64,000 bases of DNA, taken from positions 1 through 64,000 of the IMG/VR virus record IMGVR_UViG_3300002143_000172; one strand, 5' to 3'. Every line of letters begins with the position of its first letter. Within the stretch, counting starts at the first letter, position 1. The notes beneath the pieces are model-generated. The model was given only the letters and a program-made list of their open reading frames with translations. It did not search any database and had not been told where the DNA came from. This document shows positions 3,560 to 45,201 of this stretch, one piece after another. The stretch is from a virus. Made by a program: the position numbers and the translations under genes.

Positions 3560-3760
3560 TTATGCCATTTTATCTACATTCTGACCAGCTCGATTCATAT
3601 ATCGATTCATTTCAATTCGTTTTTCTTCTTCGTGCTTATGTTGTGCCGCTATTCGATTTTCTTCAACCCGTCGGTCTTCCATCCTATCGCACTCTTTTCT
3701 AATTTCTGCCTGTCTATACAACTCGGCATTCTGTCGGGTAACTCTGGAAATTTCTGACAT
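3560..3760 (-). CDS. hypothetical protein
   Basis: short charged ORF, likely start MSEIS. Confidence 0.6.
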   Translation of the reverse strand: MSEISRVTRQNAELYRQAEIRKECDRMEDRRVEENRIAAQHKHEEEKRIEMNRYMNRAGQNVDKMA

Positions 3761-3764
3761 AATA

Positions 3765-31683: not shown

Positions 31684-32240
31684 TCATTATCTTCTAACTT
31701 TCTACGCTCGCGCCTTGCTTGGGCAAGCATAAAAACCTTTTCATTATCATTGGTCCAATCTACTGCGTGTTTGGGTACAATTAACCCAGAATCCAATGTC
31801 ACACCATTAATGGTGTGAGGCTCATTCTCATCATAAGTCCACCCTAGGTGCTTCATCATACGATGCTTGACACATAGGTTAGGACTGCGGAACACTTCTG
31901 TGTCATCAAAGCCCATCATAACGCCAACCTCGCATACTGCTCCACTACGGCACACACCTGCATGACAATGAACAACGACATTCATACGATTGTCTAATGC
32001 ATGTTGTAGCAAACGGACAAGCTCTGCGGCCTGTTCATTACTACATCGCATTGCTTCTTCCAAACACTCATCGTGTTCTTCAATATCTAAAAATTGGAAT
32101 TGATGGACTTCTTTGAATTGGTGCTTGGGAGTTGGAAAATCTCCGGGCGGATCACAAATTTGGATCAGCATGGAGTTAGGACCACAATCGTGGTGCCGAC
32201 CTTGCTTAATATCAGATAACGCTACATTTTCAATCCACAT
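31680..32240 (-). CDS. Cys-based (PTP/DSP-like) phosphatase
   Basis: HCHAGVCRS (CX5R); start MWIEN after AGGAG. Confidence 0.85.
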   Translation of the reverse strand: MWIENVALSDIKQGRHHDCGPNSMLIQICDPPGDFPTPKHQFKEVHQFQFLDIEEHDECLEEAMRCSNEQAAELVRLLQHALDNRMNVVVHCHAGVCRSGAVCEVGVMMGFDDTEVFRSPNLCVKHRMMKHLGWTYDENEPHTINGVTLDSGLIVPKHAVDWTNDNEKVFMLAQARRERRKLEDND

Positions 32241-32700
32241 ACCAAATCTCCTTAAATCCTTCTTCTTCAGTGGGCTCTTCCCAACTGGCAATCATACTGG
32301 CAACAACATGTTCCGGAACGATCTTTCCAGACTCCCATCGACTGGATAGTCGACGAACAAGTTCTTTATGTTCAGGTGTACGAAACACCACAGCAATATG
32401 TTCATAGTCTGGCAACATACGAAACTTCTTAGCCCGACTAGCAATCGTAGTGCTGGTTTGATCCCAAATAATATCATTGCCCATTTCTCGAATGGCTACA
32501 ACATTTGCGGCCATTAAATTAACTGCCTTGGGCATGTATTCTGTAAAAATTTCCGAATAGGTTTTCTTCAAGCGAGCGGCTTCTAATTCAACCCAATAGT
32601 CAGTCGATACGATATGACATCTCTTGGCCCATTCTTGATTGGCGATCCAGGTACTTTTGCCCGAACCAGGCACTCCGACCATCTGATAACATCTTAGCAT
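32230..32700 (-). CDS. AAA_33 / polynucleotide-kinase-like P-loop kinase
   Basis: GVPGSGKST, VSTD, WDQT. Confidence 0.85.
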   Translation of the reverse strand: MLRCYQMVGVPGSGKSTWIANQEWAKRCHIVSTDYWVELEAARLKKTYSEIFTEYMPKAVNLMAANVVAIREMGNDIIWDQTSTTIASRAKKFRMLPDYEHIAVVFRTPEHKELVRRLSSRWESGKIVPEHVVASMIASWEEPTEEEGFKEIWYVD

Positions 32701-32721
32701 ATAATACTTTCTAAAATAGGT

Positions 32722-32796
32722 TGGTCCCGCTAGGAGGAATCGAACCTCCATCTTAACCTTAGGAGTGTTTTATTCTATCCATTGAACTATAGCGAG
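32722..32796 (-). tRNA. tRNA-Arg(CCU), weak anticodon stem
   Basis: cloverleaf, loop CU-CCU-AA, CCA. Confidence 0.75.
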
Positions 32797-32809
32797 GGGT
32801 TAATAACAC

Positions 32810-32838
32810 ATTATAGCATGATAAATGATTTGTGTCAA
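32810..32838 (-). promoter_or_regulatory. sigma70-type promoter
   Basis: TTGACA-17 nt-TATAAT. Confidence 0.8.
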
Positions 32839-32845
32839 ATGAAAA

Positions 32846-32907
32846 ACAGGATCCGCTTTTTTCAAAGTTGAAGTTTGATTTTTTAATTTGCTGAAAGGAT
32901 CCTAAAA
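32846..32907 (-). ncRNA. CAGCAA-family RNA copy 4 with anticodon-arm mimic (UCA)
   Basis: AGGAUCC/GGAUCCU stem; UCAAA-CUUCAAC-UUUGA. Confidence 0.75.
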
Positions 32908-32908
32908 C

Positions 32909-32985
32909 TGGTTGCAGTGGCAGGATTCGAACCTGCGATTCCCGGCTTATGAGACCGGACGGATAGACCACTTCCATACACTGCG
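32909..32985 (-). tRNA. tRNA-fMet(CAU)
   Basis: CAU anticodon, C1:A72 mismatch. Confidence 0.85.
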
Positions 32986-32990
32986 ATAAT

Positions 32991-33020
32991 TGGTGGAGGA
33001 GACAGGGATCGAACCGATAT
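32991..33020 (-). pseudogene. 3' remnant of a tRNA-Ala
   Basis: CGGUUCGAUCCCUGUCUCCUCCACCA without 5' half. Confidence 0.7.
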
Positions 33021-33023
33021 CTC

Positions 33024-33536
33024 CTAAATGGTGGAGGTTAAGGGGATCGAACCCTTAACTCTGCCTTGCAAAGGCAGCGTGTTCCCATTAGCACTAAACC
33101 CCCATTTGTATTCAACTGCTTGCTCTATTAAAGGAGCAACTTCGTCTTTCCATTTGCTATGTACCATTTCGTGATGATTTGGACATAATGGTATTAAGTT
33201 CTGCGGATCGTTATTATCGTGATTCTCATCTATATGATGTATTGCTACAATCTTATCAAATCCGCAAATAACACATTCGTGTTTCCAATGCTGTAAAGCA
33301 ATAGTCTTATAATGCGTAGCATTATCATTCCACCACTCTTGTCTATTGTTAGCACAACTACGACTACAGAACTTTGCTCGTTCATATGTCTTAGTTTTTA
33401 TGCGTCCTTCAAATATAAACTCTGTACCACAGCGTTCACATTCTTTAGTATGTTTTGCAACAGGACCAAATCGTTTATCGTTCTTTTCCTGTTGTAGGAG
33501 TTTGTATTGTTCAGTGTTATATTTTCCGTTGTTCAT
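33024..33536 (-). CDS. HNH homing endonuclease; C-terminus runs through tRNA-Ala
   Basis: KFCSRSCAN, CVICG, HHID, NLIPLCPNHH. Confidence 0.9.
   Translation of the reverse strand: MNNGKYNTEQYKLLQQEKNDKRFGPVAKHTKECERCGTEFIFEGRIKTKTYERAKFCSRSCANNRQEWWNDNATHYKTIALQHWKHECVICGFDKIVAIHHIDENHDNNDPQNLIPLCPNHHEMVHSKWKDEVAPLIEQAVEYKWGFSANGNTLPLQGRVKGSIPLTSTI
33029..33103 (-). tRNA. tRNA-Ala(UGC)
   Basis: cloverleaf, G3:U70, CCA. Confidence 0.9.
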
Positions 33537-33567
33537 ACTTTATTTATCATAAAGTGCGAAATACGAA

Positions 33568-33596
33568 CGCTGTTCTATCAACTGAGCTACACCCCC
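33568..33596 (-). pseudogene. 5' remnant of a tRNA-Ala
   Basis: GGGGGUGUAGCUCAGUUGAUAGAACAGCG then HNH promoter. Confidence 0.7.
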
Positions 33597-33637
33597 ATTT
33601 ATTCTTTTCTGCTAACAATCCTACAAGGGAACAAACT

Positions 33638-33714
33638 TGGTCGGAGTACAAGGATTCGAACCTTGGACCTCCTGGTCCCAAACCAGGCGCACTACCAGGC
33701 TGTGCTACACTCCG
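33638..33714 (-). tRNA. tRNA-Pro(UGG)
   Basis: canonical cloverleaf. Confidence 0.95.
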
Positions 33715-33721
33715 AATATTC

Positions 33722-33796
33722 TGGTGGGTGATGAGAGGATCGAACTCCCGACAAACTGCGTGTAAGGCAGCGACTCTACCGCTGAGCTAATCACCC
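33722..33796 (-). tRNA. tRNA-Val(UAC)
   Basis: canonical cloverleaf. Confidence 0.95.
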
Positions 33797-33801
33797 AAAT
33801 A

Positions 33802-33875
33802 TGGAGCGGGATGGGAGAATCGAACTCCCAACTTCAGTTTGGAAAACTGAGGTAATACCATTTTACGAATCCCGC
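33802..33875 (-). tRNA. tRNA-Gly(UCC)
   Basis: canonical cloverleaf, U73. Confidence 0.95.
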
Positions 33876-34016
33876 ACTCTCTAATCAAATACATCCATGC
33901 CGTTTTCCTAGAGGGTGGCCGTTCCCAATACCTAGACTACATCTAAGTTAAATGTGTTTTAAAAAAGTTTATCACAGATATTTAGTTTATCAATTTAGTG
34001 GTATATAAATATCTTG

Positions 34017-34697
34017 ATGAATATCGATCACAATCCTTATCAATGCTACGCCAATCAAGAATTGAAATGGCTCCCAATGGATACGGAAAATTTGTATAAA
34101 CGAAATCTCAAAGTTAACTATTTTCTTCTTGAAAAATTTAATTGGCTAAATTCAAATTTTACTTATAAATTTAACAGCCAAGGATTTCGTTGCGATGAGT
34201 TTACTAACAGTCCTTCTATTGTTTTTTTAGGATGTAGTATAACAGTAGGCATTGGAATACCTGTAGAAACAACCTGGGCAAGTTTAGTATCTAATCAATT
34301 AAATCTTTCTTGTTATAACTTAGGTATAGGCGGCTCATCAAACAATACTGCATTTCGATTAGCACATATATGGTTAAAAAAAATTAAACCTAAAGTGGTT
34401 GTATTTTGTCAAACCTATCCAGAAAGATTAGAAGTGTTTAACGAAAATGGAATAATATCTAATATAGCATCGGATTGCGGTGAGTTTTATAATCACTGGT
34501 TGTCCAATGAAAACAACAGCGCATTAAACCAAATTAAAAACAGGTTAGCAATTCAACAGTTATGCAATTCTTTTGATATTAAATTTGTGCATACCAGTGT
34601 GCATAATTTTGAATTTATTGATCAAGCAAGAGACCTGGCACATCCAGGAATTACATCAAATCAAAAGTTTTCGAAGTTAGTGCTAGAACTGATATAG
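34017..34697 (+). CDS. SGNH-like hypothetical protein
   Basis: FNSQGFR, LGCSITVGIG, NLGIGGSSN, ARDLAHPG. Confidence 0.7.
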   Translation: MNIDHNPYQCYANQELKWLPMDTENLYKRNLKVNYFLLEKFNWLNSNFTYKFNSQGFRCDEFTNSPSIVFLGCSITVGIGIPVETTWASLVSNQLNLSCYNLGIGGSSNNTAFRLAHIWLKKIKPKVVVFCQTYPERLEVFNENGIISNIASDCGEFYNHWLSNENNSALNQIKNRLAIQQLCNSFDIKFVHTSVHNFEFIDQARDLAHPGITSNQKFSKLVLELI

Positions 34698-34705
34698 TTA
34701 TAAAA

Positions 34706-34910
34706 GTGTTACTGCCACTTCCACCACAGAAGCCCAATAACTGAGTAGTTACCCTGTCCATAACATTTATTCTTATGGGATGGCGTTAGACCACACCCTA
34801 GACAGTTCTCGGTATTCCCTAAAGAGGAACCGTAAGGTCAAGTTCTAGTGTACCCCCTGGTCTCTCGTTACAGGGACGCTCTTTTATTTACGGCAAAGAG
34901 TAAACCGGGT
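34706..34910 (-). ncRNA. unknown multi-helix RNA (about 205 nt)
   Basis: ORF-free interval with at least five predicted helices, directly 3' of tRNA-Thr. Confidence 0.55.
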
Positions 34911-34915
34911 TATTC

Positions 34916-34989
34916 TGGTGCCCCTTGACAGAATCGAACTGCCATCAACGGATTACAAAACCATTGTATTACCATTATACTAAAGGGGC
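34916..34989 (-). tRNA. tRNA-Thr(UGU)
   Basis: cloverleaf, CCA. Confidence 0.9.
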
Positions 34990-35017
34990 CTTAAGTTTTT
35001 TGTAACACTTCATTATT

Positions 35018-35257
35018 TCACTTATTTTTAGATCCTAATTTATATTCTAAATCTTTAGAAGCATCTAGTATTGTATCTTCGGTGCTCAATATATCTTGAT
35101 ACTCATTCTTACTTACACCTGTATTATCTTCTACCGGAGTATCTGGAATTAGTTTCTTCATATATGTTGGAACATGTTTCCCAAAGATACTTTCAAAATT
35201 ATTATCAAAAGTTTTCCCATCCACACTTTTTGGACGAGGCCTCGAACCTTTACTCAT
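35018..35257 (-). CDS. small phage protein
   Basis: MSKGSRPRP...FDNNFESIFGK. Confidence 0.7.
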   Translation of the reverse strand: MSKGSRPRPKSVDGKTFDNNFESIFGKHVPTYMKKLIPDTPVEDNTGVSKNEYQDILSTEDTILDASKDLEYKLGSKNK

Positions 35258-35481
35258 CTAATCTTCCTTAAATGATCTCTACCAATTTTACCTTCTTCAA
35301 TTTCTTTTAAGGCCAATACTGCGGCGGTACTTCCGTTGTTGTTTTCTACCAACGGCATTGCACCACGCTTCAATTCTCGAACACGGGTTGATGCAATTAA
35401 TACCAAGTCAAATCTACTGCCCCCAACATTCTTAACACATTTTTCAATGTCGTTCATTGTTCGTTCTAGTTTTTTTGTCAT
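35254..35481 (-). CDS. rpoZ: RNA polymerase omega subunit homologue
   Basis: SRFDLVLIASTRVREL and ALKEIEEGKI motifs. Confidence 0.85.
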   Translation of the reverse strand: MTKKLERTMNDIEKCVKNVGGSRFDLVLIASTRVRELKRGAMPLVENNNGSTAAVLALKEIEEGKIGRDHLRKIR

Positions 35482-35503
35482 AGTTGCCTTAGTTAAAAAA
35501 TTG

Positions 35504-35587
35504 TGGTGCCCCAGGCGAGACTCGAACTCGCAACCCTTTCGGGGACGGCTTCTAAGACCGCTGTGTAAACCATTCCACCACCGGGGC
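35504..35587 (-). tRNA. tRNA-Leu(UAG)
   Basis: class II cloverleaf. Confidence 0.95.
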
Positions 35588-35645
35588 ATAATAAAATACA
35601 TTGTAGCAGGATATTTATATCTTGTCAACCTGCTTAAAACAAAAT

Positions 35646-35722
35646 TGGTGGGCCAGATCGGATTCGAACCGATGATCAACGGCTTATGAGGCCGCTGCTT
35701 TAGGCCTCTAAGCTACTGGCCC
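35646..35722 (-). tRNA. tRNA-Ile2/Met(CAU)
   Basis: CAU anticodon, GGGCC acceptor typical of Ile2. Confidence 0.85.
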
Positions 35723-35745
35723 AATTTTAAATACTAAATATTGTT

Positions 35746-36321
35746 ATGAACTTTAACATCTCTGTAGATACACAGTATGGCATAATGCTTAGTGGCGGTA
35801 TTGATAGTGCTATATTGTTCTATCTGTTAATTAAAGAGGAACCAAAAATAAGACTCCAACCGTTTACTATTCCCAAAGTTGACGGCGCATACTTATATGC
35901 TGATCCGCTCATTGATTATTTTAATAATAAATTTAACTTAACAATTCCACACACGATTAAAGTAGGTGATCCGACTTTACATCACACAAAACAGGGTCAA
36001 AGTGGATATACTGATATTCGAAAGTTTTATAAAAATATACAGATCGTATTCTGTGCTCTTAACGCAGTTCCTTTAGAATTACAAGACGGTCGTCATCCTA
36101 TAAGGCTGATGCACGGACCTACTAACCTTAAATTGCCATTTGTTAATATGTTCAAGGATCAAATTCTTCAAATTATGTATGATGAAGGGCAAACTGATCT
36201 TATTGATCTCACCCATTCGTGTACAGAAAGAACTGTGGGACGATGTAATCATTGTTGGCAATGCGGTGAACGCAGTTGGGCATTTAATAAACTAAACAAA
36301 GTTGATACCGGAACAAAATAA
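35746..36321 (+). CDS. QueC-like PP-loop protein
   Basis: SGGIDS and SC...CNHCWQCGER. Confidence 0.75.
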   Translation: MNFNISVDTQYGIMLSGGIDSAILFYLLIKEEPKIRLQPFTIPKVDGAYLYADPLIDYFNNKFNLTIPHTIKVGDPTLHHTKQGQSGYTDIRKFYKNIQIVFCALNAVPLELQDGRHPIRLMHGPTNLKLPFVNMFKDQILQIMYDEGQTDLIDLTHSCTERTVGRCNHCWQCGERSWAFNKLNKVDTGTK

Positions 36322-36323
36322 CA

Positions 36324-36397
36324 TGGTGCCCGGAGCCGGACTCGAACTTGTGATAAAGGCTTATCAAGCCTCCGTTATACCGTTTAACTACAGAGCT
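36324..36397 (-). pseudogene. chimeric pseudo-tRNA (Ile(GAU) 5' part fused to Leu-type 3' end)
   Basis: T-stem ACAAG/CCGGC unpaired; 3' end nearly identical to adjacent tRNA-Leu(UAA). Confidence 0.7.
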
Positions 36398-36409
36398 GTC
36401 TTACTAACT

Positions 36410-36708
36410 TGGTGCTCCGAGCCGGAATCGAACCGGCACGCCATTACAGCGAGGGATTTTCTTACCACTATAGTTTTCACTACCTTTGCAGTTTGGTGGT
36501 CTGGACTATACCTTCATCATAGCATTACTGCCTTAGATGCTCGCCGTCTAGTCTCTACACGTTCAAAGTAATTTCTTACTAAGCTTCGCTCGGTATTAGC
36601 ATGTTAAAGCCTTCACCGAATTTGACGAGTTCTACTCCCGGCATTTCCACCGGGGCACTCAAATTTTACTCTCAAGTCCCTTGTGTCTACCTATTTCACC
36701 ATCAGAGC
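36410..36708 (-). tRNA. tRNA-Leu(UAA) split by group I intron
   Basis: exons 36674-36708 and 36410-36460 join to AGGGA-CU-UAA-AA-UCCCU. Confidence 0.92.
36461..36673 (-). mobile_element. group I intron (IC3-like, no ORF, 213 nt)
   Basis: P AAUUCGGUGAA, Q AAUACCGAGC, R GUAGAGACUAGACGG, S AAGGUAUAGUCC, terminal G, inserted after U34. Confidence 0.92.
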
Positions 36709-37293
36709 AATTAATCTTTTCATTCTTTCGTAGTTGCCGCCTTTTGCAGCTAGTCCTACTTCTAATAATGCTTGTCGTATGTTACTACATTTTGCATATG
36801 CTGTCAATAGCTCTTGGTCAGTTACTTTAACTTTCCCCGAGTTGATATTTCTACCTCTCCATGTTGGAGTTAATGCATGACAGTTACAACATAATAGTTT
36901 AAGATTTTCCCTTGTATTATGTTTGTTATCACCGTCGACATGCTCTAATTCTAACGGTATAGGACTGGACTGCCACTCGGTCAATCCACACCCTTCACAT
37001 TGGTAACCTCGCTCTTGTATAAGAGCCGATTTGTGATTACCAATACCATCGTACTCAAATTTTGTATTGGAATAATTACCTTTATTCCAATTCATTTTAG
37101 TTTTGGTGTCCGCTGGCAAATTTGCATACCTGATTTTTGCAGGCAAACGATTACCTAACTCGTATACTGCTTTAGTTCTTTCTGAGTTAATTGCTTTAAG
37201 TACACTGCATCCTGCGGGTCTGGCGCAACAGCAATTTTTACCATTTTTTAAAACAAACTTAGATGCAGTGTTGCATCCGTAATCACATAACAT
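36691..37293 (-). CDS. HNH homing endonuclease; stop codon inside tRNA-Leu 5' exon
   Basis: CEGCG, LELEHVDG, NLKLLCCNCHA. Confidence 0.9.
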   Translation of the reverse strand: MLCDYGCNTASKFVLKNGKNCCCARPAGCSVLKAINSERTKAVYELGNRLPAKIRYANLPADTKTKMNWNKGNYSNTKFEYDGIGNHKSALIQERGYQCEGCGLTEWQSSPIPLELEHVDGDNKHNTRENLKLLCCNCHALTPTWRGRNINSGKVKVTDQELLTAYAKCSNIRQALLEVGLAAKGGNYERMKRLIALMVK

Positions 37294-37370
37294 AACATAC
37301 TCCTGTTATGTGTATTTAGTAGGTAGGCACAGAATGCTTAACTTAAACTACCAATTACTCTATAAAAACT

Positions 37371-37438
37371 TGGTACACCGTGCGGAATGCGTACCCGCCG
37401 TGAAAGGGTGATGTCCTAGGCCTCTAGACGAACGGGAC
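37371..37438 (-). pseudogene. tRNA-Glu(UUC) pseudogene, T-arm deleted
   Basis: GUCCCGUUCGUCUAGAGGCCUAGGAC 5' half, no UUCGA loop. Confidence 0.75.
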
Positions 37439-37517
37439 AAAAATGTTACTTTTAATTTTTAAAGAGCGTGTTAATTTCTTAACTTATGCATTATTATAGC
37501 ATACTACTGCAGGTGTG

Positions 37518-38195
37518 TCAAGCAGTTTTAACGCTTTGGGAAGGTAATATAAAGTTTCCCGCCTGTGCTTTTTCGATAACTTGCGAAAAATTCATCGATA
37601 AACATTTCAACCTTAGGAACACCCGCTGTTTATCATTGTTCCTTACACCGTGTATGGTATGACCGTTAAACATGCTTGGGTGATCTAGACTGTAATTATA
37701 ACTATAAATTAGATCTCTTTTTGGTATTACTGGATAACTTGTTGCCCGCTGCCAAACAGACCCCGGTGGCATCCTGTAAAAATCAATTGGACTTGCATCA
37801 CTATCGGGTAAGATCGGGAACATGATCCCACAATACATATGAAAGTCTATGTGAGGTACAAAATTATAACCTGGACCATAGATTAAGATATCTACATCGG
37901 CTCCCTGCAACGGTTGGTCAAAGTTGAATTGTTCCACTAATTTTTTTATCGGATCAAAATCTTTTACATGTTTACCCAATGTAAAATAGGTATCGATCGA
38001 ATCAAATAGTCCAGCTGAATCTTCCTTAAACCGTTTATTGTGCGTCATGTTGTTTGATGCGTGTTTATTGGAAAACTTATTCATTAGTTTGCCAAAACTG
38101 ACTTGGTATTGTTTTACACTTTCATACCAATCTTTTAACTCTTCTCGATCGTATGTTATTTCGTCAAACACTACATGATGATCGAATACTTGCAT
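37518..38195 (-). CDS. 2OG-Fe(II) oxygenase-like protein
   Basis: PHID, HGVRN...R. Confidence 0.7.
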   Translation of the reverse strand: MQVFDHHVVFDEITYDREELKDWYESVKQYQVSFGKLMNKFSNKHASNNMTHNKRFKEDSAGLFDSIDTYFTLGKHVKDFDPIKKLVEQFNFDQPLQGADVDILIYGPGYNFVPHIDFHMYCGIMFPILPDSDASPIDFYRMPPGSVWQRATSYPVIPKRDLIYSYNYSLDHPSMFNGHTIHGVRNNDKQRVFLRLKCLSMNFSQVIEKAQAGNFILPSQSVKTA

Positions 38196-38217
38196 GGAAT
38201 TATTTAGTAACCTAACT

Positions 38218-38291
38218 TGGTGCTCAAGAATAGAATCGAACTATTGATTGCTCCTTACCATGGAGCCGTTATTCCATTTAACTACAAGAGC
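38218..38291 (-). tRNA. tRNA-Thr(GGU)
   Basis: cloverleaf with A32 and two U-U acceptor mismatches. Confidence 0.8.
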
Positions 38292-38298
38292 AAAAATA

Positions 38299-38390
38299 TG
38301 GTGGAGAGTGAGAGATTCGAACTCTCGGACCCACTTGCGTGGATCGACAGGTTAGCAACCTGCTGCCTTAGACCACTCGGCCAACTCTCC
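38299..38390 (-). tRNA. tRNA-Ser(GCU)
   Basis: class II cloverleaf, A73. Confidence 0.9.
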
Positions 38391-38400
38391 TAAATCTATT

Positions 38401-38497
38401 CGGTACGACCGGTAGGGTTCGAACCTACAAGGGCTATGTCTAAGACGGTGCCCCATCCTGCTCAACGCAGAGGTCTGCCAATTCCACTCACGGTCGC
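38401..38497 (-). ncRNA. tRNA-like RNA without a normal anticodon loop
   Basis: acceptor, D and T arms intact; 5-nt loop, very long variable arm, ends ACCG. Confidence 0.7.
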
Positions 38498-38541
38498 AAG
38501 TATATTATATACTTATCCGTGGTACTTGTCAACTAAAATAT

Positions 38542-38616
38542 TGGTCCGCCCACCAGGAATCGAACCTGGAATCACACTTTAGAAGAATGTTGTTATATCC
38601 ATTTAACTATGGGCAG
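38542..38616 (-). tRNA. tRNA-Arg(UCU)
   Basis: cloverleaf. Confidence 0.9.
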
Positions 38617-38711
38617 TGAGTCTCTAGTATAACATACTATTTTGTTTATGTCAATTCTGCTCATATAAATAGCTTTATGAATGTTATTTTTTGGAACGGC
38701 GGAATTAAAAT

Positions 38712-38785
38712 TGGCAGGGGCACTAGGGATCGAACCTAGACTAACAGAGTCAAAGTCTGTTGTGCTACCATTACACAATGCCCCA
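38712..38785 (-). tRNA. tRNA-Gln(UUG)
   Basis: cloverleaf. Confidence 0.9.
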
Positions 38786-38795
38786 ACAAAAAGGT

Positions 38796-38945
38796 TTTCA
38801 AGAGCCCAACTATCCTCCTGGGAGGACTCATTGGATTGTCTCGACAAGGCAAGTTTATACAACCGTCATCGCCGTCTGCGGTGTCATACAGCCAACCAAA
38901 ACTGTACTAGGCTTGCGGGACTCGAACCTTGCGTCTATCTTGAAA
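38796..38945 (-). ncRNA. unknown 150-nt structured RNA with T-loop
   Basis: UUUCAAGA/UCUUGAAA closing stem, GG-UUCGAGU-CC, several hairpins. Confidence 0.6.
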
Positions 38946-38947
38946 TT

Positions 38948-39022
38948 TGGTAGTAATGGAAAGAGTCGAACTTTCACAGCGCACCGTATGAAGGTGTTGC
39001 ACTACCATTATGCTACATTACC
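38948..39022 (-). tRNA. tRNA-Met(CAU)
   Basis: cloverleaf, paired 1:72. Confidence 0.85.
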
Positions 39023-39094
39023 ATATGTAAACACACTCAGAGGAGGCGTTCTCCGGCGCCGGAGTACCAAGCTGATCGTAAATGTGTTTGCATA

Positions 39095-39168
39095 TGGTAG
39101 GACCACCCGGACTCGAACCGGGATAGATCGGTTAAAAGCCGACTATTCTACCTTTGAATTATGATCCC
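39095..39168 (-). tRNA. tRNA-Lys(UUU)
   Basis: cloverleaf. Confidence 0.9.
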
Positions 39169-39172
39169 GTAT

Positions 39173-39247
39173 TGGTCCATGCTCTGAGAATCGAACTCAG
39201 TTCCTCCGGTTAAGAGCCGGTTACTTCGCCACTAAAGTTTAGCATGG
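39173..39247 (-). tRNA. tRNA-Lys(CUU)
   Basis: cloverleaf, atypical A8. Confidence 0.85.
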
Positions 39248-39328
39248 GTTGTGTATTAAATTGATTTAATGTGCCAACCCTAGACCAATACGGGATCTAG
39301 AGCGACACTATCGTTTACCTCGTTTCAT
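39242..39328 (-). promoter_or_regulatory. mini-ORF MKRGKR* (39308-39328) plus switch hairpin antisense to tRNA-Lys junction
   Basis: AAGGAG SD; 15-nt perfect inverted repeat 39283-39297 vs 39163-39177. Confidence 0.65.
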
Positions 39329-39329
39329 G

Positions 39330-39458
39330 TCAATCTCCTTTTTTGATATTACGATTTTGTGCTTGGCGTTCTGATTTCCAGAACACTCGTTTCCAATCTT
39401 TCAAATGCTTCCACCATTGTGGAGGCGCTGTCAAGTTACCCTTTTTGACATTTGCCAT
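39330..39458 (-). CDS. 42 aa basic Trp-rich peptide (not in ORF track)
   Basis: MANVKKGNLTAPPQWWKHLKDWKRVFWKSERQ...*, AAGGAA SD. Confidence 0.7.
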   Translation of the reverse strand: MANVKKGNLTAPPQWWKHLKDWKRVFWKSERQAQNRNIKKGD

Positions 39459-39485
39459 ACTGGTTCCTTTTTTAATTTAAAACTA

Positions 39486-40130
39486 TTATTTGCTGTGCAG
39501 TAAATTTACAAACTCTAACAATAGAGCATGATGTCTGCGATTATGCCAATGCTCCGGCATCCATGTATAACTGTCATACCAAAATTTTTCACTTTCTAAA
39601 TGACAGCCCATTAAACCTAAATTTCCCTGTATTATTGCCATAGGGTCTCCGTTGGCATAGGTAGCAACGGTAGTAAACTTTGTTTGATCTCCAATGAAAC
39701 AACATCCGTCATTGTAGAACATCTTGTCCGACTGTCCATTCCAGGTAACTGATATTGCTTTAGTATGTGGTCTATGAGTATCTGCGGTAGGTTGCTTGTA
39801 ATACTGTACAGCGTCTACATCCTCAAGCAGATCAAAGTAATAATGATTGGCCCAATATGCGCCCATACATATTCCTAGATACTTGCCCCCACTATTAACA
39901 AACTCTTTAATAAGATCGGCGTTATTTTTTAGCAGATAATCGTAGCTATCGGAATTTCCAAAACCACCGGGAAATGCAACTATATCAACATCATTGAAAA
40001 AATCTTCTTCTAGCTCGTGCTTGGTAAAGATTTTAAAATCATAATGGCTTTTAAGTGCTTGCATGATACCATTGCCCGACTGTACAGAACACATCGGTTG
40101 ATGTATGAACAGTGCAATCTTAGGTTTCAT
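39486..40130 (-). CDS. BPL_N / class I glutamine amidotransferase-like protein
   Basis: FPGG, GGKYLGICMGAY, HLE. Confidence 0.8.
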   Translation of the reverse strand: MKPKIALFIHQPMCSVQSGNGIMQALKSHYDFKIFTKHELEEDFFNDVDIVAFPGGFGNSDSYDYLLKNNADLIKEFVNSGGKYLGICMGAYWANHYYFDLLEDVDAVQYYKQPTADTHRPHTKAISVTWNGQSDKMFYNDGCCFIGDQTKFTTVATYANGDPMAIIQGNLGLMGCHLESEKFWYDSYTWMPEHWHNRRHHALLLEFVNLLHSK

Positions 40131-40143
40131 AACTTTATTTATA

Positions 40144-40219
40144 TGGCACCCCCGGAGAGAATCGAACTCCCATTCCTGCGTTCGTAGCACAGTGTATGAA
40201 TCCATTATACGACAGGGGT
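40144..40219 (-). tRNA. tRNA-Arg(ACG)
   Basis: cloverleaf. Confidence 0.9.
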
Positions 40220-40231
40220 ATAAATAATTTT

Positions 40232-41437
40232 ATGAAAAACTGGGAAAATGTTAAAAAACTGCACATAGAAATAAGTTCTCAATGTAACGCTGTATGTCCT
40301 ATGTGTACTCGGTATCCAACCGCTAGTTACTTTGAGCACCCGCATATACAGAAAGACTGGATGTGGACTGTAGACACAGTAAAACAACGACTACCTAAAG
40401 AAGATTTAATAGGTATAACTTCATACCTTATCAATGGCACCTTTGGAGATTTTATTATGAACTCCGAAGCAATAGAAATAATACAGTATCTAAATGAATG
40501 TTCACCCGATGCTAGTCTTTATATCAATACCAACGGTTCTGCTAGAAACGCAAGTTGGTGGAAAGAACTTGCAAAGATTCCTAATGTAGTAGTAAATTTT
40601 GCAATCGACGGATTAGAAGATACTCATTCACTTTACAGGAGAAACACTAGCTGGTCTAAGATTATTGACAATGCTAAAACATTTATAAATTCGGGCGGTC
40701 ATGCAGAATGGACAATGATTATATTTGAGCATAATAAGCATCAAGTTGATGCTTGCTTTAATCTCAGCACAACTATTGGATTTAAATCATTTACCAGCCG
40801 AAATAGCGACCGAATCAATACTGATGTTCTTGATAAAAATGGCCTTAGTAAATACGGAATAAAATCTGCCGATCCTACCATTACCAGTTATCGATCCTAC
40901 CATCAATTACAGTGGAAAGAAACTATATTAAAGAAAGGTCAGTTTTACGCAAAGCAAACATACCAAACCGGCGCATTGCCTAGTATAGACTCATGCTCGA
41001 GTATTTCGGAAAGTTCGGTATACATAGGATCAAATTGGTCCGTAATGCCGTGTTGTTTCTTAGGAAACATTACGATGGGTAGGCAGACTGATCATAGGTG
41101 GGCAAATTTCTTAGATGCACTCACTAACGCAGGATTTTCCTTAACCGACTTTGATGCAACAAGTACCAAAACAGTTCGTCAAGTATTTGAGCAAGGGTTT
41201 GACTGGGTATACAATCGCATATTAACCGACAATGCGTTAGTTGCTTGTTCAACAAATTGTCATCCTGTGGACAGTGCATTTCAGAGAAGTATGGCAAGTC
41301 GTCAACATGAAACCCTTAAAAATATGGTGCCGCCCCCAGGGATCGAACCTGGTTCCTCGGTGCTTCAAACCGGTGCTATGACCACATCAGCTAAAGCGGC
41401 ATTGGTACCAGCGGAGGGTATCGAACCCTCTCACTGA
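40232..41437 (+). CDS. radical SAM / SPASM protein
   Basis: CNAVCPMC, NTNGS, VMPCC; 3' end overlaps tRNA-Phe antisense. Confidence 0.9.
   Translation: MKNWENVKKLHIEISSQCNAVCPMCTRYPTASYFEHPHIQKDWMWTVDTVKQRLPKEDLIGITSYLINGTFGDFIMNSEAIEIIQYLNECSPDASLYINTNGSARNASWWKELAKIPNVVVNFAIDGLEDTHSLYRRNTSWSKIIDNAKTFINSGGHAEWTMIIFEHNKHQVDACFNLSTTIGFKSFTSRNSDRINTDVLDKNGLSKYGIKSADPTITSYRSYHQLQWKETILKKGQFYAKQTYQTGALPSIDSCSSISESSVYIGSNWSVMPCCFLGNITMGRQTDHRWANFLDALTNAGFSLTDFDATSTKTVRQVFEQGFDWVYNRILTDNALVACSTNCHPVDSAFQRSMASRQHETLKNMVPPPGIEPGSSVLQTGAMTTSAKAALVPAEGIEPSH
41325..41400 (-). tRNA. tRNA-Phe(GAA)
   Basis: cloverleaf. Confidence 0.9.
41403..41430 (-). pseudogene. 3' tRNA remnant (T-arm plus GGUACCA)
   Basis: GAGGG-UUCGAUA-CCCUC then CGCUGGUACCA. 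Confidence 0.65.
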
Positions 41438-41447
41438 TGTTATCTAT

Positions 41448-41524
41448 TGGTACCTCCGGCGGGAGTCGAACCCCCAACCACCTGCTTCTAAGGCAAGCCG
41501 CACTACCAATTAGCGTACGAAGGC
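41448..41524 (-). tRNA. tRNA with Leu(UAG) anticodon, short variable loop
   Basis: 77-nt class I cloverleaf. Confidence 0.85.
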
Positions 41525-41529
41525 ATATA

Positions 41530-41606
41530 TGGTACCCCGTGTCTGATTCGAACAGACATCCAACTCCTTTTGAGAGAATTCGCACTACCAATTAGCGTAA
41601 CGGGGC
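41530..41606 (-). tRNA. tRNA with Leu(CAA) anticodon, short variable loop
   Basis: 77-nt class I cloverleaf, same D-arm as neighbour. Confidence 0.85.
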
Positions 41607-41616
41607 ATAAAAACTT

Positions 41617-41692
41617 TGGGGTGCTCTATGAGGATCGAACTCATACTACCGGGGTCACAGACCAGTGTGCAGGCCACTACACTAAGAACACC
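41617..41692 (-). tRNA. tRNA-His(GUG)
   Basis: G-1:C73. Confidence 0.9.
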
Positions 41693-41698
41693 ATTGTT

Positions 41699-41775
41699 TG
41701 GAGCACAGGGTGGGACTCGAACCCACGACTTTACGGATTTGCAATCCGCTACATTGGCCGCTCTGTCACCTGTGC
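41699..41775 (-). tRNA. tRNA-Cys(GCA)
   Basis: cloverleaf, U73. Confidence 0.9.
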
Positions 41776-41782
41776 ATATAAT

Positions 41783-41856
41783 TGGAGCGGGTAGCGAGAA
41801 TCGAACTCGCGATTAAACTTCGGCAAAGTTTTAGGTTACCATTACATCATACCCGC
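41783..41856 (-). tRNA. tRNA-Gly(GCC)
   Basis: cloverleaf, U73. Confidence 0.9.
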
Positions 41857-41864
41857 ATTGTTTG

Positions 41865-42464
41865 TTAGCCAAATAATATTTTTTTGGCATCTTTAAAATA
41901 TGTATTACTTTGAATATTTTCCATTATTCTTAGAGTTAATACAACTCTAAGTGAGTTTGATCGACTATTGTCAAAATCATGAAAAATATCTGTGTTAAAC
42001 AATATACATTCATTTGATTTTGCGACCATACTTTTTATCGGTGTATGTTTTGTTTTATCGAAACCAGCACATTCTCTTGAAGTTTTTTTCTGCAAATTGT
42101 CTATTAGATACTCTTTTAAATCTTCATCACTATACCAATTAGTAACACACGCTTCGTCTAAAATTTGAACGGTATAGTTGATACTAAATCGATCAGACAT
42201 TCCGTCCTTGTGTGCCCTGTAATATCCACCGGGCTTTGTCATAAACAAACTAACACGATGTGGCCTTAATGGCATTTGCTTTGCCATTGGTAGTAATGAA
42301 AGAAGATGATTCGCTTGATCTTTTGGAAAAGGGTAATGAATAAAAGTCTCATTATCCTCGATTGAAGGCATATTCTTTTTACAATAGTCAACGATCTTAT
42401 CTAGCCCGTCGTGGGTAAATCTAATATAGTACGGACTGCAATCTTCGATTATTGTATAGGTCAT
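41865..42464 (-). CDS. 2OG-Fe(II) oxygenase-like protein
   Basis: AHKDG, FNTDIFHDFDN...R. Confidence 0.7.
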   Translation of the reverse strand: MTYTIIEDCSPYYIRFTHDGLDKIVDYCKKNMPSIEDNETFIHYPFPKDQANHLLSLLPMAKQMPLRPHRVSLFMTKPGGYYRAHKDGMSDRFSINYTVQILDEACVTNWYSDEDLKEYLIDNLQKKTSRECAGFDKTKHTPIKSMVAKSNECILFNTDIFHDFDNSRSNSLRVVLTLRIMENIQSNTYFKDAKKILFG

Positions 42465-42487
42465 ATAACTATTTACAATCTAAAATT

Positions 42488-42579
42488 TGGCGGAAGACGG
42501 AGGAGTCGAACCCCATCCCATTTCTGAGAACCCAGTTTTCAAGGCTGGTCGGCGCACCAACGCACCTGCATCATCTTCC
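42488..42579 (-). tRNA. tRNA-Ser(UGA), 8/4 fold
   Basis: 8-bp acceptor, 4-bp T-stem, G73, long V-arm. Confidence 0.8.
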
Positions 42580-42585
42580 ATAACT

Positions 42586-42659
42586 TGGTCCTCTCGTATG
42601 GAATCGAACCATCATCTACCGGTTATCAGCCGATTGCTCTACCATTGAGCTACAAGAGG
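42586..42659 (-). tRNA. tRNA-Ile(GAU)
   Basis: cloverleaf. Confidence 0.9.
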
Positions 42660-42666
42660 AAATAAA

Positions 42667-42730
42667 ACAGGATGCATTTTTGGCTTTTTTTCAAGAAAAG
42701 ATTTTTAAATTTGCTGGAAGCATCCTAAAA
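42667..42730 (-). ncRNA. CAGCAA-family RNA copy 5 with anticodon-arm mimic (UGA)
   Basis: AGGAUGC/GCAUCCU stem; CUUUU-CUUGAAA-AAAAG. Confidence 0.75.
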
Positions 42731-42732
42731 CT

Positions 42733-42807
42733 TGGCGGTCTGTGGGGGAATCGAACCCCCGTAAGTGGATAGACAATCCACAGTAATAACCTCTATACGA
42801 ACAGACC
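42733..42807 (-). tRNA. tRNA-Asp(GUC)
   Basis: cloverleaf, unusual U37. Confidence 0.9.
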
Positions 42808-42812
42808 TAAAC

Positions 42813-42887
42813 TGGTACTGCGTACGGGAATCGAACCCGTCTCTTTGGCTTGAAGGGCCAAGGACCTACCCAGAAGTCCAACGCAGT
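42813..42887 (-). tRNA. tRNA-Glu(UUC)
   Basis: cloverleaf, unusual C33. Confidence 0.8.
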
Positions 42888-42894
42888 GTAAAAT

Positions 42895-42970
42895 TGGTCT
42901 CGCATGAAGGACTCGAACCTTCGAAATCCTGGCCCCAAACCAGGTGGCATAGCCGCTAACCGAATGCGAG
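42895..42970 (-). tRNA. tRNA-Pro(UGG)
   Basis: cloverleaf. Confidence 0.9.
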
Positions 42971-42977
42971 ATAAACT

Positions 42978-43052
42978 TGGCGTACCGGGAGGGATTTGAA
43001 CCCCCACTAGCAGTTTTGGAGACTGTCGTGCTGCCGTTAACACTACCGATAC
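42978..43052 (-). tRNA. tRNA-Trp(CCA)
   Basis: cloverleaf. Confidence 0.9.
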
Positions 43053-43098
43053 ATAACTTGGTGGACTCAACAAGCTCATGCTTGCATTTGTCCTTAAT

Positions 43099-43173
43099 TG
43101 GTGGAGGCCGAGGGAATCGAACCCTTCTAGTCACGATGCTTGCAAGGCAACGCCGTAGCCCATTACTGCCCCC
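43099..43173 (-). tRNA. non-canonical tRNA-Ala(UGC), reduced D-arm
   Basis: G3:U70, A73, CU-UGC-AA loop, 8/4-like fold. Confidence 0.7.
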
Positions 43174-43178
43174 AATTG

Positions 43179-43721
43179 TTAGACGACAAGTAATTCTTGC
43201 CATCTTATAACTTTTGATTCATCATAAACATCACGCTTACCTTTTCTTGCGTTTTCGCTTGCCGGTAAGTACTGTAAATTGTCTTGATGATGTAGTCCTC
43301 CGTTTGCTAACGGAATCCTATGATCAACTTGATATCCTTCCGGAACAAATTGATAAATTTTTCTGATTAAATCTAAATCAGCATTGTCAGGTATAGCATT
43401 TCTTTTCCGTGCTCTGTAAGCATAGACATTTGCTTTATTACCTGCTCTTTTATGTTCTTCAGTCACTCTGCCTCTATGGTCCCAGTAAGCATTTCTAGCT
43501 TCTGAAATTTTAGCAGAATGTTCTTGTGTCCTAGGAGGAAGTTTTACACCCTTTCTGTTCGGCATTTTAGACTTACCAGAAACAATAGCTTTCTTAACAC
43601 CGTTAGCAATTTTTTCTTTAGTATCTGCTGTTCTAATTCTACTGTTAGCACATGCTCTTGAGCAAAATTTTCCAGATCCAAAAGATCCATTGTGTGTAGT
43701 GTTACATTTCAGACATTTCAT
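43179..43721 (-). CDS. HNH homing endonuclease
   Basis: KFCSRACAN, VDHRIPL, GGLHHQDNLQ, ENARK. Confidence 0.9.
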   Translation of the reverse strand: MKCLKCNTTHNGSFGSGKFCSRACANSRIRTADTKEKIANGVKKAIVSGKSKMPNRKGVKLPPRTQEHSAKISEARNAYWDHRGRVTEEHKRAGNKANVYAYRARKRNAIPDNADLDLIRKIYQFVPEGYQVDHRIPLANGGLHHQDNLQYLPASENARKGKRDVYDESKVIRWQELLVV

Positions 43722-43776
43722 ATTAGTTCTCCTAATTGTATTTATACAATCGTACTCAGCTAATACAAATTACATT

Positions 43777-43852
43777 TGGCTCCCCAGGTATGGATCGAAC
43801 ATACGACATCTTCGTTAACAGCGAAGCGCAACTACCTCTGTGCTACTGGGGA
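43777..43852 (-). tRNA. tRNA-Asn(GUU)
   Basis: cloverleaf. Confidence 0.9.
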
Positions 43853-43886
43853 ATAAATTAGTGAAGGATTTCACGGAATAGAAAAT

Positions 43887-43974
43887 TGGTGAAGAATGAT
43901 GGAATCGAACCACTTGCCGCCACCCCGCTTAACAATGGCCACCGGGTTACAGCCGGCGACGGGGAACATCCTCC
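43887..43974 (-). tRNA. D-armless tRNA-Tyr(GUA)
   Basis: 8-bp acceptor, GCCGG-CU-GUA-AC-CCGGU, long V-arm, 4-bp T-stem, ACCA. Confidence 0.7.
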
Positions 43975-44036
43975 AAAACACACTCTAGCAGTTTATCTTT
44001 CTGCCTCTTTGTACTATGTACTCGGAACGAATGTGT

Positions 44037-44111
44037 GTATTAAAACAAACTGACTAGCTACGCTCCGACACTAACTTCACAGGTTAGCCGTGTGCCAATT
44101 TGCTTTAATAC
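44037..44111 (-). ncRNA. hairpin RNA enclosing anticodon-arm mimic (GUG)
   Basis: 18-bp closing stem; CUAAC-CUGUGAA-GUUAG. Confidence 0.5.
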
Positions 44112-44237
44112 GAACTAATTTTTAGTCCCACAAGAGGGATTCCATCCTAGTCGCCGCCCGTTTAAGACTTGTTTTAAGTGCGTCTTCAGGACCTCGTTTC
44201 CTGGGCATTGCTGCTCTTACTTTCACACTTTGCGATT

Positions 44238-44390
44238 CTAACGACCTCCGCAGAGTATCTCTCGCTTTCTCATAGTTTCATAACTTTCTACAGCTCTTGT
44301 TAACTTGTTCTGAATAAGTTGTTTAACCTGTTCAGGAGTTAGCGTATGCTGTCGAAGCCAATCTACTTCTTTAATCTTTTTCTCTATCAT
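44238..44390 (-). CDS. 50 aa peptide (not in ORF track)
   Basis: MIEKKIKEVDWLRQHTLTPEQVK...CGGR*, AGGAGA SD. Confidence 0.6.
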   Translation of the reverse strand: MIEKKIKEVDWLRQHTLTPEQVKQLIQNKLTRAVESYETMRKREILCGGR

Positions 44391-44763
44391 TTCTCTCCTG
44401 CTCTACAAATTGTTCAAATCTTGTTGCTAGGTCATCATTTGCAGGATCTGTTGGTATGTTGTATGCGTGTATTCTGCGATGGCAGTTAGCACACACTACA
44501 ACACACTTTCTTAGTTCCCTTAAAACAGAACTTATACTTTTTGTTATTTGTCTAATAACCCCTACCTCTTTCTGGCTAGGATCACTATGATGGAAATCTA
44601 AACAAGCAGAGTCGGTCTCGCCGCATCTACTACATTTTAGTGTTCCTTTCCATTCCTGGAAAACATCAAGTAATTCTTTGTATCTGTTTTTTTGATACTC
44701 TAACAACCTTTCTTTGTTCTTTTCGTAAAACTCTTTTCTCTTCTGTTTGTGTTCTTGTTCCAT
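44371..44763 (-). CDS. HNH endonuclease
   Basis: CSRCG, LDFHH, KCVVVCANCHR. Confidence 0.85.
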   Translation of the reverse strand: MEQEHKQKRKEFYEKNKERLLEYQKNRYKELLDVFQEWKGTLKCSRCGETDSACLDFHHSDPSQKEVGVIRQITKSISSVLRELRKCVVVCANCHRRIHAYNIPTDPANDDLATRFEQFVEQERNDREKD

Positions 44764-44829: not shown

Positions 44830-44866
44830 AAAAAACGAAACCCCAGGGTTTTTAATCCTGGGGTCC
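44830..44866 (-). terminator. attenuator terminator
   Basis: GACCCCAGG-loop-CCUGGGGUU followed by UCGUUUUUU. Confidence 0.85.
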
Positions 44867-44890
44867 TTGAAGTTGTTGTGTATTTTTGTG

Positions 44891-45022
44891 TTACACTACA
44901 CGCTCCCGGGACCCCTGGCAAATCTCTGGTGTACGATCATTACTTGATAGTAACCAAGAGGTGGGCATAAAGCCTGCCTGTTTGGCATCTAATCTATAAT
45001 AATGTATCGAACAGTTTTTCAT
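44891..45022 (-). CDS. putative attenuator leader peptide (43 aa, all 20 amino acids)
   Basis: MKNCSIHYYRLDAKQAGFMPTSWLLSSNDRTPEICQGSRERVV*; 3' end forms antiterminator. Confidence 0.75.
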   Translation of the reverse strand: MKNCSIHYYRLDAKQAGFMPTSWLLSSNDRTPEICQGSRERVV

Positions 45023-45080
45023 TTGCTTTCTCTTTATTTCCTAAAAATTTACAAACAGCATTATTGCTGCCTATGTGTTA

Positions 45081-45201
45081 ATTATACAGTTATTTAGCAT
45101 CGCTGTCAACCTCTTTTTATATTTTTGACAAAAAAGATTTTTAACAACTCTTCTTCCTAACCATGTGTCTATTGTATATTTATTTAGCATCGCTGTCAAC
45201 C
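45081..45201 (-). promoter_or_regulatory. tandem sigma70 promoters (direct repeat) heading the tRNA array
   Basis: TTGACA-17-TATAAT (45081-45109) and TTGACA-17-TACAAT (45171-45199), both with TAAATA in spacer. Confidence 0.9.

Follow-up and report, generated by a model that had tools for sequence, protein, structure and literature searches.

The stretch of DNA analysed here (the window) comprises 64,000 nt of a 159-kb virus record, and ARAGORN identified 31 tRNA genes on its minus strand. Inside this tRNA array, between a 42-aa ORF and two adjacent tRNA-Lys genes in the order CUU then UUU, lies a short leader whose parts are collected in Table 1. The initial annotation had described a Shine-Dalgarno (SD) sequence, a mini-ORF ending in UAG and a 15-bp hairpin starting at the G of that stop codon; all of these coordinates were correct when checked on the minus strand, and the hairpin, here termed H1, lies where it had been drawn. 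AAA occupies both codon 2 of the mini-ORF and codon n-1, the second before UAG (39316-39314). Also borne out was the claim that 39297-39283 is the exact reverse complement of 39177-39163. This antisense segment consists of the 7-nt loop and 4 bp of the upper stem on each side, and its target comprises G72-A73-CCA of tRNA-Lys(CUU), the 4-nt spacer and nucleotides 1-6 of tRNA-Lys(UUU). The alternative pairing proposed for the H1 3' strand was likewise found, 39280-39275 being complementary to 39251-39246, that is, to leader positions -4 to -1 and nucleotides 1 and 2 of tRNA-Lys(CUU).

The perfect 15-nt complement is the longest perfect inverted repeat listed for positions 32000-44500 (12.5 kb), where, by a rough estimate, about 0.005 such pairs within 400 nt would be expected by chance. 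The minimum free energy (MFE) structure predicted for the 256-nt region (z = -5.39, to which both tRNAs contribute) is a locked form, in which the H1 apex lies on the tRNA junction and the H1 3' strand on the tRNA-Lys(CUU) leader. Linker positions 39257-39253 can pair with the H1 loop as a possible pseudoknot; across homologues a core of 3-4 bp is conserved with a few compensatory cases and a small permutation signal (4.44 versus 4.28 bp), which is suggestive of such a structure. A search of Rfam 15 over the leader returned only the tRNAs and two chance-level matches on the opposite strand. The tRNA-Lys(CUU) gene has a weak Rfam score and an unusual D arm; behind the same lock, homologues have CUU bodies of several widely divergent kinds, a pattern suggestive of modular exchange. 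On the far side of the pair, a 17-bp stem joins the ACCA end of tRNA-Lys(UUU) to the 5' end of the tRNA that follows, CAU or His depending on the locus. A stem of this kind, with a variable structured interior, is found after 47 of 80 Lys(UUU) spacers versus at most 5 of 36 for any other tRNA, and it probably belongs with the device.

Table 1. Positions of the leader, its predicted structural segments and the neighbouring genes in the window
Feature	Position	Strand	Remarks
42-aa ORF	39330..39458	-	Directly upstream of mini-ORF; TGA stop 1 nt before mini-ORF ATG
Shine-Dalgarno sequence of mini-ORF	39335..39340	-	AAGGAG
Segment 1	39327..39338	-	SD and start region; predicted to pair with segment 2 in absence of ribosome (helix 1:2)
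Mini-ORF MKRGKR	39308..39328	-	ATG at 39328; AAA CGA GGT AAA CGA; TAG 39310-39308
Hairpin H1 (segments 2:3)	39271..39308	-	38 nt, 15 bp; base is G of stop codon; putative ON structure
Antisense segment	39283..39297	-	H1 loop and upper stem; complementary to tRNA-tRNA junction
H1 3' strand, alternative helix H2	39275..39280	-	Putative early decision helix; pairs with tRNA-Lys(CUU) leader and nt 1-2
Linker	39248..39270	-	Small hairpin 39270-39255 extends H2; 39251-39248 is H2 partner in leader
tRNA-Lys(CUU)	39173..39247	-	ARAGORN; atypical, Rfam 31.7 bits
Segment 4, antisense target	39163..39177	-	CCA end of tRNA-Lys(CUU), spacer, nt 1-6 of tRNA-Lys(UUU)
tRNA-Lys(UUU)	39095..39168	-	Common target in all architectures; G31-C39 pair
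Downstream spacer stem, 17 bp	39019..39099	-	Arms 39099-39083 and 39035-39019
tRNA with CAU anticodon	38948..39022	-	5' end covered by downstream spacer stem

The closeness of the 42-aa ORF's stop to the mini-ORF start makes translational coupling possible. This ORF is not a conserved part of the device; its cluster has 160 members, all named 'hypothetical protein' or left without a name, and in 43 of 135 homologues its place is taken by a sigma70-like promoter no more than 90 nt from the mini-ORF ATG and just upstream of the SD. A promoter search found no strong promoter adjoining the device in this genome, and so the device seems to form a second tier within a long tRNA transcript. Upstream of that transcript, promoters at 45199 and 45109 precede a 43-codon ORF; the region as a whole (44830-45199, minus strand), with its two consensus sigma70 promoters, the ORF (44891-45022) and a T-tract hairpin ahead of the entire tRNA array, looks like a first-tier attenuator. 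A covariance model search of the same genome revealed no second copy of the device. Other features of the array include a phage-encoded RNA polymerase omega subunit (PF01192; 35254-35481, minus strand) and, at 36480-37293, a group I intron match (Rfam 50.2 bits; 36480-36683, minus strand) beside a 200-aa HNH-like ORF.

A near-identical phage is present in lake-water libraries. At 39524-40106 it has 580 other bases in place of 583 nt of a 239-aa ORF, marking a hypervariable cassette. Metatranscriptome contigs of a near-identical phage, from four lake RNA libraries, span 38741-39390; they carry no information on strand, ends or level, and this coverage is therefore not evidence of expression or processing. 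BLASTn searches against 50,697 GenBank phages returned tRNA-body matches or nothing, and hence no cultured carrier at that sensitivity. A scan of GTDB gave four matches, of which three are real elements on 1.5-3.9 kb contigs of metagenome-assembled genomes. These belong to unrelated taxa (Planktophila, Bacteroidetes and Polynucleobacter) and are probably misbinned phage DNA, so that no host can be assigned from them, and none was indicated by RpoZ homologues. The fourth match (L181) was a chance match and not an element.

A family of leaders upstream of phage lysine tRNAs

A 21-nt pattern covering the mini-ORF alone matched 12 viral loci, 11 of which had an immediate hairpin and a tRNA-Lys. 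Looser patterns were run against viral and metagenome contigs, and all counts from them are lower bounds. After pooling and deduplication, the family set holds at least 237 copies in at least 235 loci, with the hairpin no more than 75 nt from tRNA-Lys; four other pattern matches were tRNA-internal and were left out. Among the matches listed, tRNA-Lys follows the device directly in 237 of 237 copies, and in a second, metagenome set, all 106 of the 106 matches listed are in frame and stand before tRNA-Lys. Mean identity among the tRNA bodies behind the device is only 67%, so these are not clonal copies. When every tRNA in these loci was screened, no type other than tRNA-Lys had an upstream antisense of this kind, spacer stems excepted. 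Across homologues, pairs 6-13 of H1 show 4-6 pair types, with a median ΔG of -19 kcal/mol. RNAalifold recovered just 10 pairs from a MAFFT alignment, because indels misalign the H1 apex, and anchored counts were used in its place. On these comparative grounds the device is a conserved cis-regulatory RNA of many uncultured aquatic phages.

Some loci depart from the common layout. Two contigs (L116, at 3621-3800 and 4029-4285, and L239) carry two copies of the device each; in L116 one copy stands before a single tRNA-Lys(UUU) without a normal CCA end and the other before a CUU-UUU pair. In six loci (L032, L108, L114, L131, L140 and L272) the linker is about 32 nt longer through an apparent internal duplication, the device being otherwise intact. 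In L008 (about 2095-2820), an H1 remnant and the downstream tRNA-Lys(UUU) are some 720 nt apart, separated by an inserted protein gene that looks nuclease-like by eye and carries a hairpin masking its own start; complementarity to the tRNA 5' end survives in part.

The mini-ORF bears the marks of a reading frame. Among the 237 matches listed, the stop is UAG with its G at the hairpin base in every copy, the start is in frame with it in 236, and codon n-1 is AAA in 233 and AAG in 4, so that a lysine codon is kept there throughout. Codon 2 is AAA or AAG, AAA being common at that position in ordinary genes as well (17 of 91), and codon 3 encodes Arg in most copies. Its length of 6-9 codons changes by whole codons. 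A pattern built on the hairpin and linker only, free of the ORF, had UAG at the hairpin base in 131 of 131 real matches listed, with AAA at codon n-1 in 130 and AAG in 1, and a last codon specifying any of seven amino acids (Arg, Leu, Gln, Pro, Ser, Ile and His). This pool includes loci first found by the ORF patterns; among the 42 loci new to the ORF-free scan, codon n-1 was AAA in 41 and AAG in 1. For comparison, of 709 ordinary ORFs in these loci, 39 carry AAA at n-1 and 90 end in UAG. Within the matches listed, AAG at n-1 is confined to copies that have UUU as their first tRNA (4 of 22 versus 0 of 215; p = 6e-5), the four copies being not all mutually independent.

The encoded peptide takes 35 forms, in which only Met, Lys2 and Lys n-1 are constant. 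Conservation of the lysine codons, which the initial annotation had named as a check, is therefore found, and its last codon, for Arg, is not conserved. Judged by sequence, the mini-ORF has the makeup of a leader ORF (SD-like 4-mer in 131 of 139 homologues, 6-9 in-frame codons, Lys at 2 and n-1), and its conservation shows it to be selected as a translated frame with lysine at codon 2 and codon n-1 and at a fixed distance from H1. By the standard decoding rules, AAA is read only by tRNA-Lys(UUU), so the sensor would be tuned to that tRNA.

Covariation between the hairpin apex and the tRNA junction

Covariation at the junction was assessed in 122 tandem copies anchored on A76. Each offset from -4 to +7 is paired in 112-120 of the 122 tandem copies listed, with A-U, U-A, G-C and G-U exchanges across the spacer. 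The spacer varies from 2 to 7 nt, and the length of the antisense insert equals that of the target gap in 100 of 120 copies. Cognate duplexes have a mean energy of -25.3 kcal/mol, versus -20.9 +/- 0.3 kcal/mol for permuted partners. When changes were counted as independent pairs on a tree of tRNA bodies, gap length gave 13.9 in the same direction versus 0.1 in the opposite one (p about 1e-4), the first spacer base gave 11.4 versus 0, and H2 was concordant in 12 of 12. The corresponding values on a tree built from the non-pairing leader were 7.0, 6.3 and 6.0, each versus 0 (p = 0.016 for gap length). Because both trees derive from short sequences and tRNAs undergo recombination, these counts of independent events are approximate. 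A swap of A-U for U-A in H2 is concordant in 107 of 107. The compensatory conservation that had been put forward as a check on the 15-nt complementarity is clearly present, both in bases and in length and in tree-independent pairs.

The same targeting can be seen in other architectures. In the metagenome set, the apex spans the tRNA-Lys(UUU) 5' junction with an energy better than -12 kcal/mol in 96 of 96 matches listed. Where the CUU gene is absent (L001, L005, L009, L020, L116 and L179), the apex matches the leader and 5' end of tRNA-Lys(UUU), and in L051, where the CUU gene has shrunk to a stub, the apex match persists. The apex thus lies at the tRNA-Lys(UUU) 5' junction in all architectures, which points to the RNase P site of this tRNA as the common target. 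The initial annotation had set the target at the junction of both tRNA-Lys genes; that placement stands for tandem copies, and the part shared by all copies is the 5' end of tRNA-Lys(UUU). Covariation shows that H1 and the tRNA-masking helices both exist and are mutually exclusive.

Ribosome position and the predicted switch

One part of the structure, the predicted helix 1:2, goes beyond what had been annotated before. Bases -3, -2 and -1 before the start are G, A and C in 96, 100 and 97 of 128 copies, respectively, the duplex has an energy of -8.3 kcal/mol versus -5.1 +/- 0.2 kcal/mol for shuffled segment 1, and of 138 nascent fragments 127 have a pairing probability above 0.5. With both strands nearly invariant, covariation is marginal (-8.33 versus -8.08), and the case for the helix is one of conservation and energy. 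With it, mutually exclusive helices 1:2, 2:3 and 3:4 overlap the ORF end, giving a four-segment logic like that of trpL.

Folding was modelled with the ribosome footprint masked to +13 from the first P-site base, a reach taken from what is known of the entry-tunnel helicase, in models that leave out pseudoknots, tRNA tertiary structure and co-transcriptional timing. Among 201 tandem nascent leaders, the fraction with a masked tRNA 5' end was 0.04 for a ribosome at Lys2, 0.22 at Lys n-1, 0.89 at the last codon and 0.98 at the stop, and 0.66 with no ribosome; the window itself gave masking probabilities of 0.00, 0.25, 0.98, 1.00 and 0.67, respectively. The models thereby reproduce the direction of switching postulated by the initial annotation, open when the ribosome is stalled at AAA and masked when it is at UAG. 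They amend it in that ribosome-free RNA is predicted to be OFF as well, through helix 1:2, and that the ON state would be kinetic. Lys n-1 is the last position that leaves H1 standing, which would explain the fixed spacing. Extending the reach by 2 nt turns Lys n-1 OFF as well (0.77 masked), which would leave Lys2 as the sole sensing codon. For copies with a single tRNA, the modelled nascent fragment, which is without a competing acceptor stem, was masked wherever the ribosome was placed (0.80-1.0).

H2 formed in 204 of 204 models with the ribosome at the stop and remains the MFE structure after ribosome release, so it could preserve the outcome over the roughly 80 nt of transcription that precede the main target. 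With both tRNAs present, and wherever the ribosome is placed, 83-100% of homologues are more stable in the locked than in the ON form. Being the thermodynamic minimum, the locked form implies that ON must be a kinetic state lasting until processing. The estimated barrier to the locked form is 18-22 kcal/mol in homologues with H1 intact versus 10 kcal/mol with the ribosome at the stop, and 20-24 versus 4 kcal/mol in the window. The downstream stem forms in both states in the models (lock 0.93 versus 1.00), so that switching of a relay is not supported by them; its role may be to enforce an order of processing or to relay the lock.

We consider it likely that the leader is an RNA switch of four segments, controlled by a ribosome, through which the speed of AAA decoding determines whether the phage tRNA-Lys matures. 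According to the models, a ribosome waiting on any of codons 2 to n-1 would cover segment 1 and not segment 2, so that H1 would form and the antisense would be hidden. A ribosome at the last codon or at UAG would open H1, whose 3' strand would be caught at once by the tRNA-Lys(CUU) leader, forming H2; with no ribosome, segment 1 would capture segment 2, and the H2 outcome would likewise be the locked one. The freed antisense would pair across the CCA end, the spacer and the tRNA-Lys(UUU) 5' end, breaking both acceptor stems and hiding the RNase P sites. The locked precursor would escape maturation and be degraded, and helix 1:2 would also shut off re-initiation. Such a circuit would act as negative feedback, releasing phage tRNA-Lys only when functional tRNA-Lys(UUU) is scarce, be it through cleavage by a host anticodon nuclease (AriB of PARIS, or PrrC) or through loss of charging or modification. 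The phage tRNA-Lys would, then, probably mature only when ribosomes stall for lack of working tRNA-Lys.

That tRNA maturation is the output is in our judgement probable too. No terminator-like site was found in 39095-39345, and the longest T-run after H1 or after the duplex is no more than 4 in 122 homologues. No SD or protein gene that could serve as a switch target was found downstream, tRNA-Lys occupying that place in all 237 copies listed. In the absence of a terminator, a downstream protein gene and a conserved readthrough frame, a block to maturation is the most economical reading. A sequestered tRNA 5' leader blocks RNase P in Escherichia coli in vivo, as found with a synthetic switch (PMC7897497). 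Here, positions -4 to -1 in the leaders of both tRNAs lie within the OFF helices, as do a CCA end and bases of the acceptor stems, with H2 extending over -4 to +2 of tRNA-Lys(CUU) and the antisense over the whole spacer and +1 to +6 of tRNA-Lys(UUU).

With rather less assurance, we favour a reading in which the tRNA precursor senses missing tRNA-Lys(UUU) through the leader ribosome and unlocks itself when needed to counteract host nucleases that attack tRNA-Lys; the lock might also be passed on to the following tRNA by way of the downstream stem. PrrC is one nuclease with tRNA-Lys as its target. AriB of the PARIS system has tRNA-Lys(UUU) as its main target, and T5 escapes it with a variant tRNA-Lys (PMC12409363). 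Of 129 tRNA-Lys(UUU) genes behind the device, 87 have the G31-C39 pair and none has the exact E. coli AriB site (36-41), a site that may differ in the host; these counts are at most compatible with counter-defence. Release of tRNA-Lys only upon failure of AAA decoding would fit counter-defence and fits poorly with simple supplementation of codon usage. The device makes the question of why phages carry tRNAs directly testable, and as a module of about 100 nt it is small enough for testing in E. coli and for reuse as a reporter of tRNA-Lys-cleaving defence systems.

Competing explanations and known systems

The same sensor and switch could act mainly through loss of the transcript, by Rho-dependent termination or RNase III-type cutting, with the downstream tRNA genes silenced too. 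Leader-peptide attenuators that work through Rho are known (tnaC, mgtL), the locked RNA contains an unbroken helix of about 17 bp with other helices stacked on it, and the Lys(UUU)-specific spacer stem ties the next tRNA to the lock. The pairing, however, tracks the CCA end, the spacer length and the 5' junctions exactly, which a terminator would not need; highly paired locked RNA would be a poor loading site for Rho, and an intrinsic terminator is missing, so that we regard transcript loss as the main output as unlikely. Clearly less probable again is a translation-dependent timer or folding chaperone that is not specific for lysine, in which any slow ribosome or translation stress would open the lock and AAA would be kept as RNA sequence. 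Codons 2 and n-1 change only to AAG whereas variation at adjacent codons is free, no conserved partner with which AAA could pair was observed, and the device stands only before tRNA-Lys in the 237 matches listed; these points outweigh the ON state that the models give for a stall at any of codons 2 to n-1, the Arg at codon 3 of most copies and the very small amount of synonymous change of AAA at n-1.

The unchanging UAG, with a stable hairpin and perhaps a pseudoknot downstream of it, would also suit a signal for stop-codon readthrough or recoding, and the peptide itself might be the functional product. Both ideas leave the tRNA-junction covariation unexplained and are very improbable. H1 lengths fall in all three frames, the extension past UAG runs for 2-75 codons with no conservation, which largely refutes readthrough, and no stop codon but UAG provides the G at the base of H1; the peptide, for its part, varies in length and in sequence. 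The hairpin's UGGU is complementary to ACCA in about 112 of the 122 tandem copies listed, as would be expected of a T-box-like element binding the ACCA end of uncharged tRNA in trans. Such an element is even harder to credit, since the complementarity runs into the unprocessed spacer and the next tRNA and follows both in cis, single-tRNA copies target a leader without CCA, and no Rfam T-box match was obtained at the gathering score or at E up to 10. Least credible of all is chance, or a functionless scar left by duplication of the junction in inverted orientation. Duplications of that kind are known from tRNA clusters, but repeated compensatory base and length changes on independent branches, among tRNA bodies 67% identical on average, together with the retargeting in other architectures, refute it.

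Among known systems, T-box riboswitches also read tRNA status and pair UGGN with an NCCA end, but they do so with no ribosome, on a mature tRNA bound in trans and with termination or initiation as output, and the device has no Rfam T-box match. Theta ribozymes resemble it as cis RNA elements located by phage tRNA genes and tied to tRNA maturation; they are described as self-cleaving, HDV-like and without a mini-ORF sensor or antisense lock (PMC10879173). The tRNA-Lys(UUU) of T5 shows that a phage tRNA can replace the host tRNA cleaved by AriB of PARIS, and conditional control of phage tRNA maturation is not described in the portion of that account available (PMC12409363). In the translational attenuators ermC and cat, as proposed here, a stalled leader-ORF ribosome unmasks a downstream functional site after transcription. 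The site unmasked there is an SD, whereas here it would be a tRNA 5' junction and CCA end, and the stall would depend on codon supply, with no conserved arrest peptide among the 35 forms.

A literature search lying mostly outside subscription journals turned up no natural case in which tRNA processing is linked to a leader ORF, and the only precedent found for such control is the synthetic RNase P riboswitch (PMC7897497). There, too, a helix sequesters the tRNA 5' leader, and efficient cleavage requires -1 to -4 to be unpaired, the positions covered by the OFF helix here. That switch is engineered and driven by theophylline, whereas the device is natural and, on the models, would be driven by the ribosome, its helix also invading the acceptor stems of two tRNAs. 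The closest likeness in logic is to the attenuators trpL, hisL, thrL and pheM (pheST), which have a short SD-led ORF with sensing codons and four segments, with 1:2 and 3:4 formed in the OFF state (ribosome at the stop or none) and 2:3 in the ON state (stalled ribosome). Unlike in these attenuators, helix 3:4 here has no U-tract and is not a terminator, it is formed with tRNA ends, and the gene regulated would be the tRNA that reads the sensing codon. The device would, we infer, work like a leader-peptide attenuator that lacks an intrinsic terminator and has an output without description in nature. If this is true, a tRNA would control its own maturation through its own codon, and stable-RNA processing would become a third output of ribosome-mediated attenuation, after transcription termination and translation initiation.
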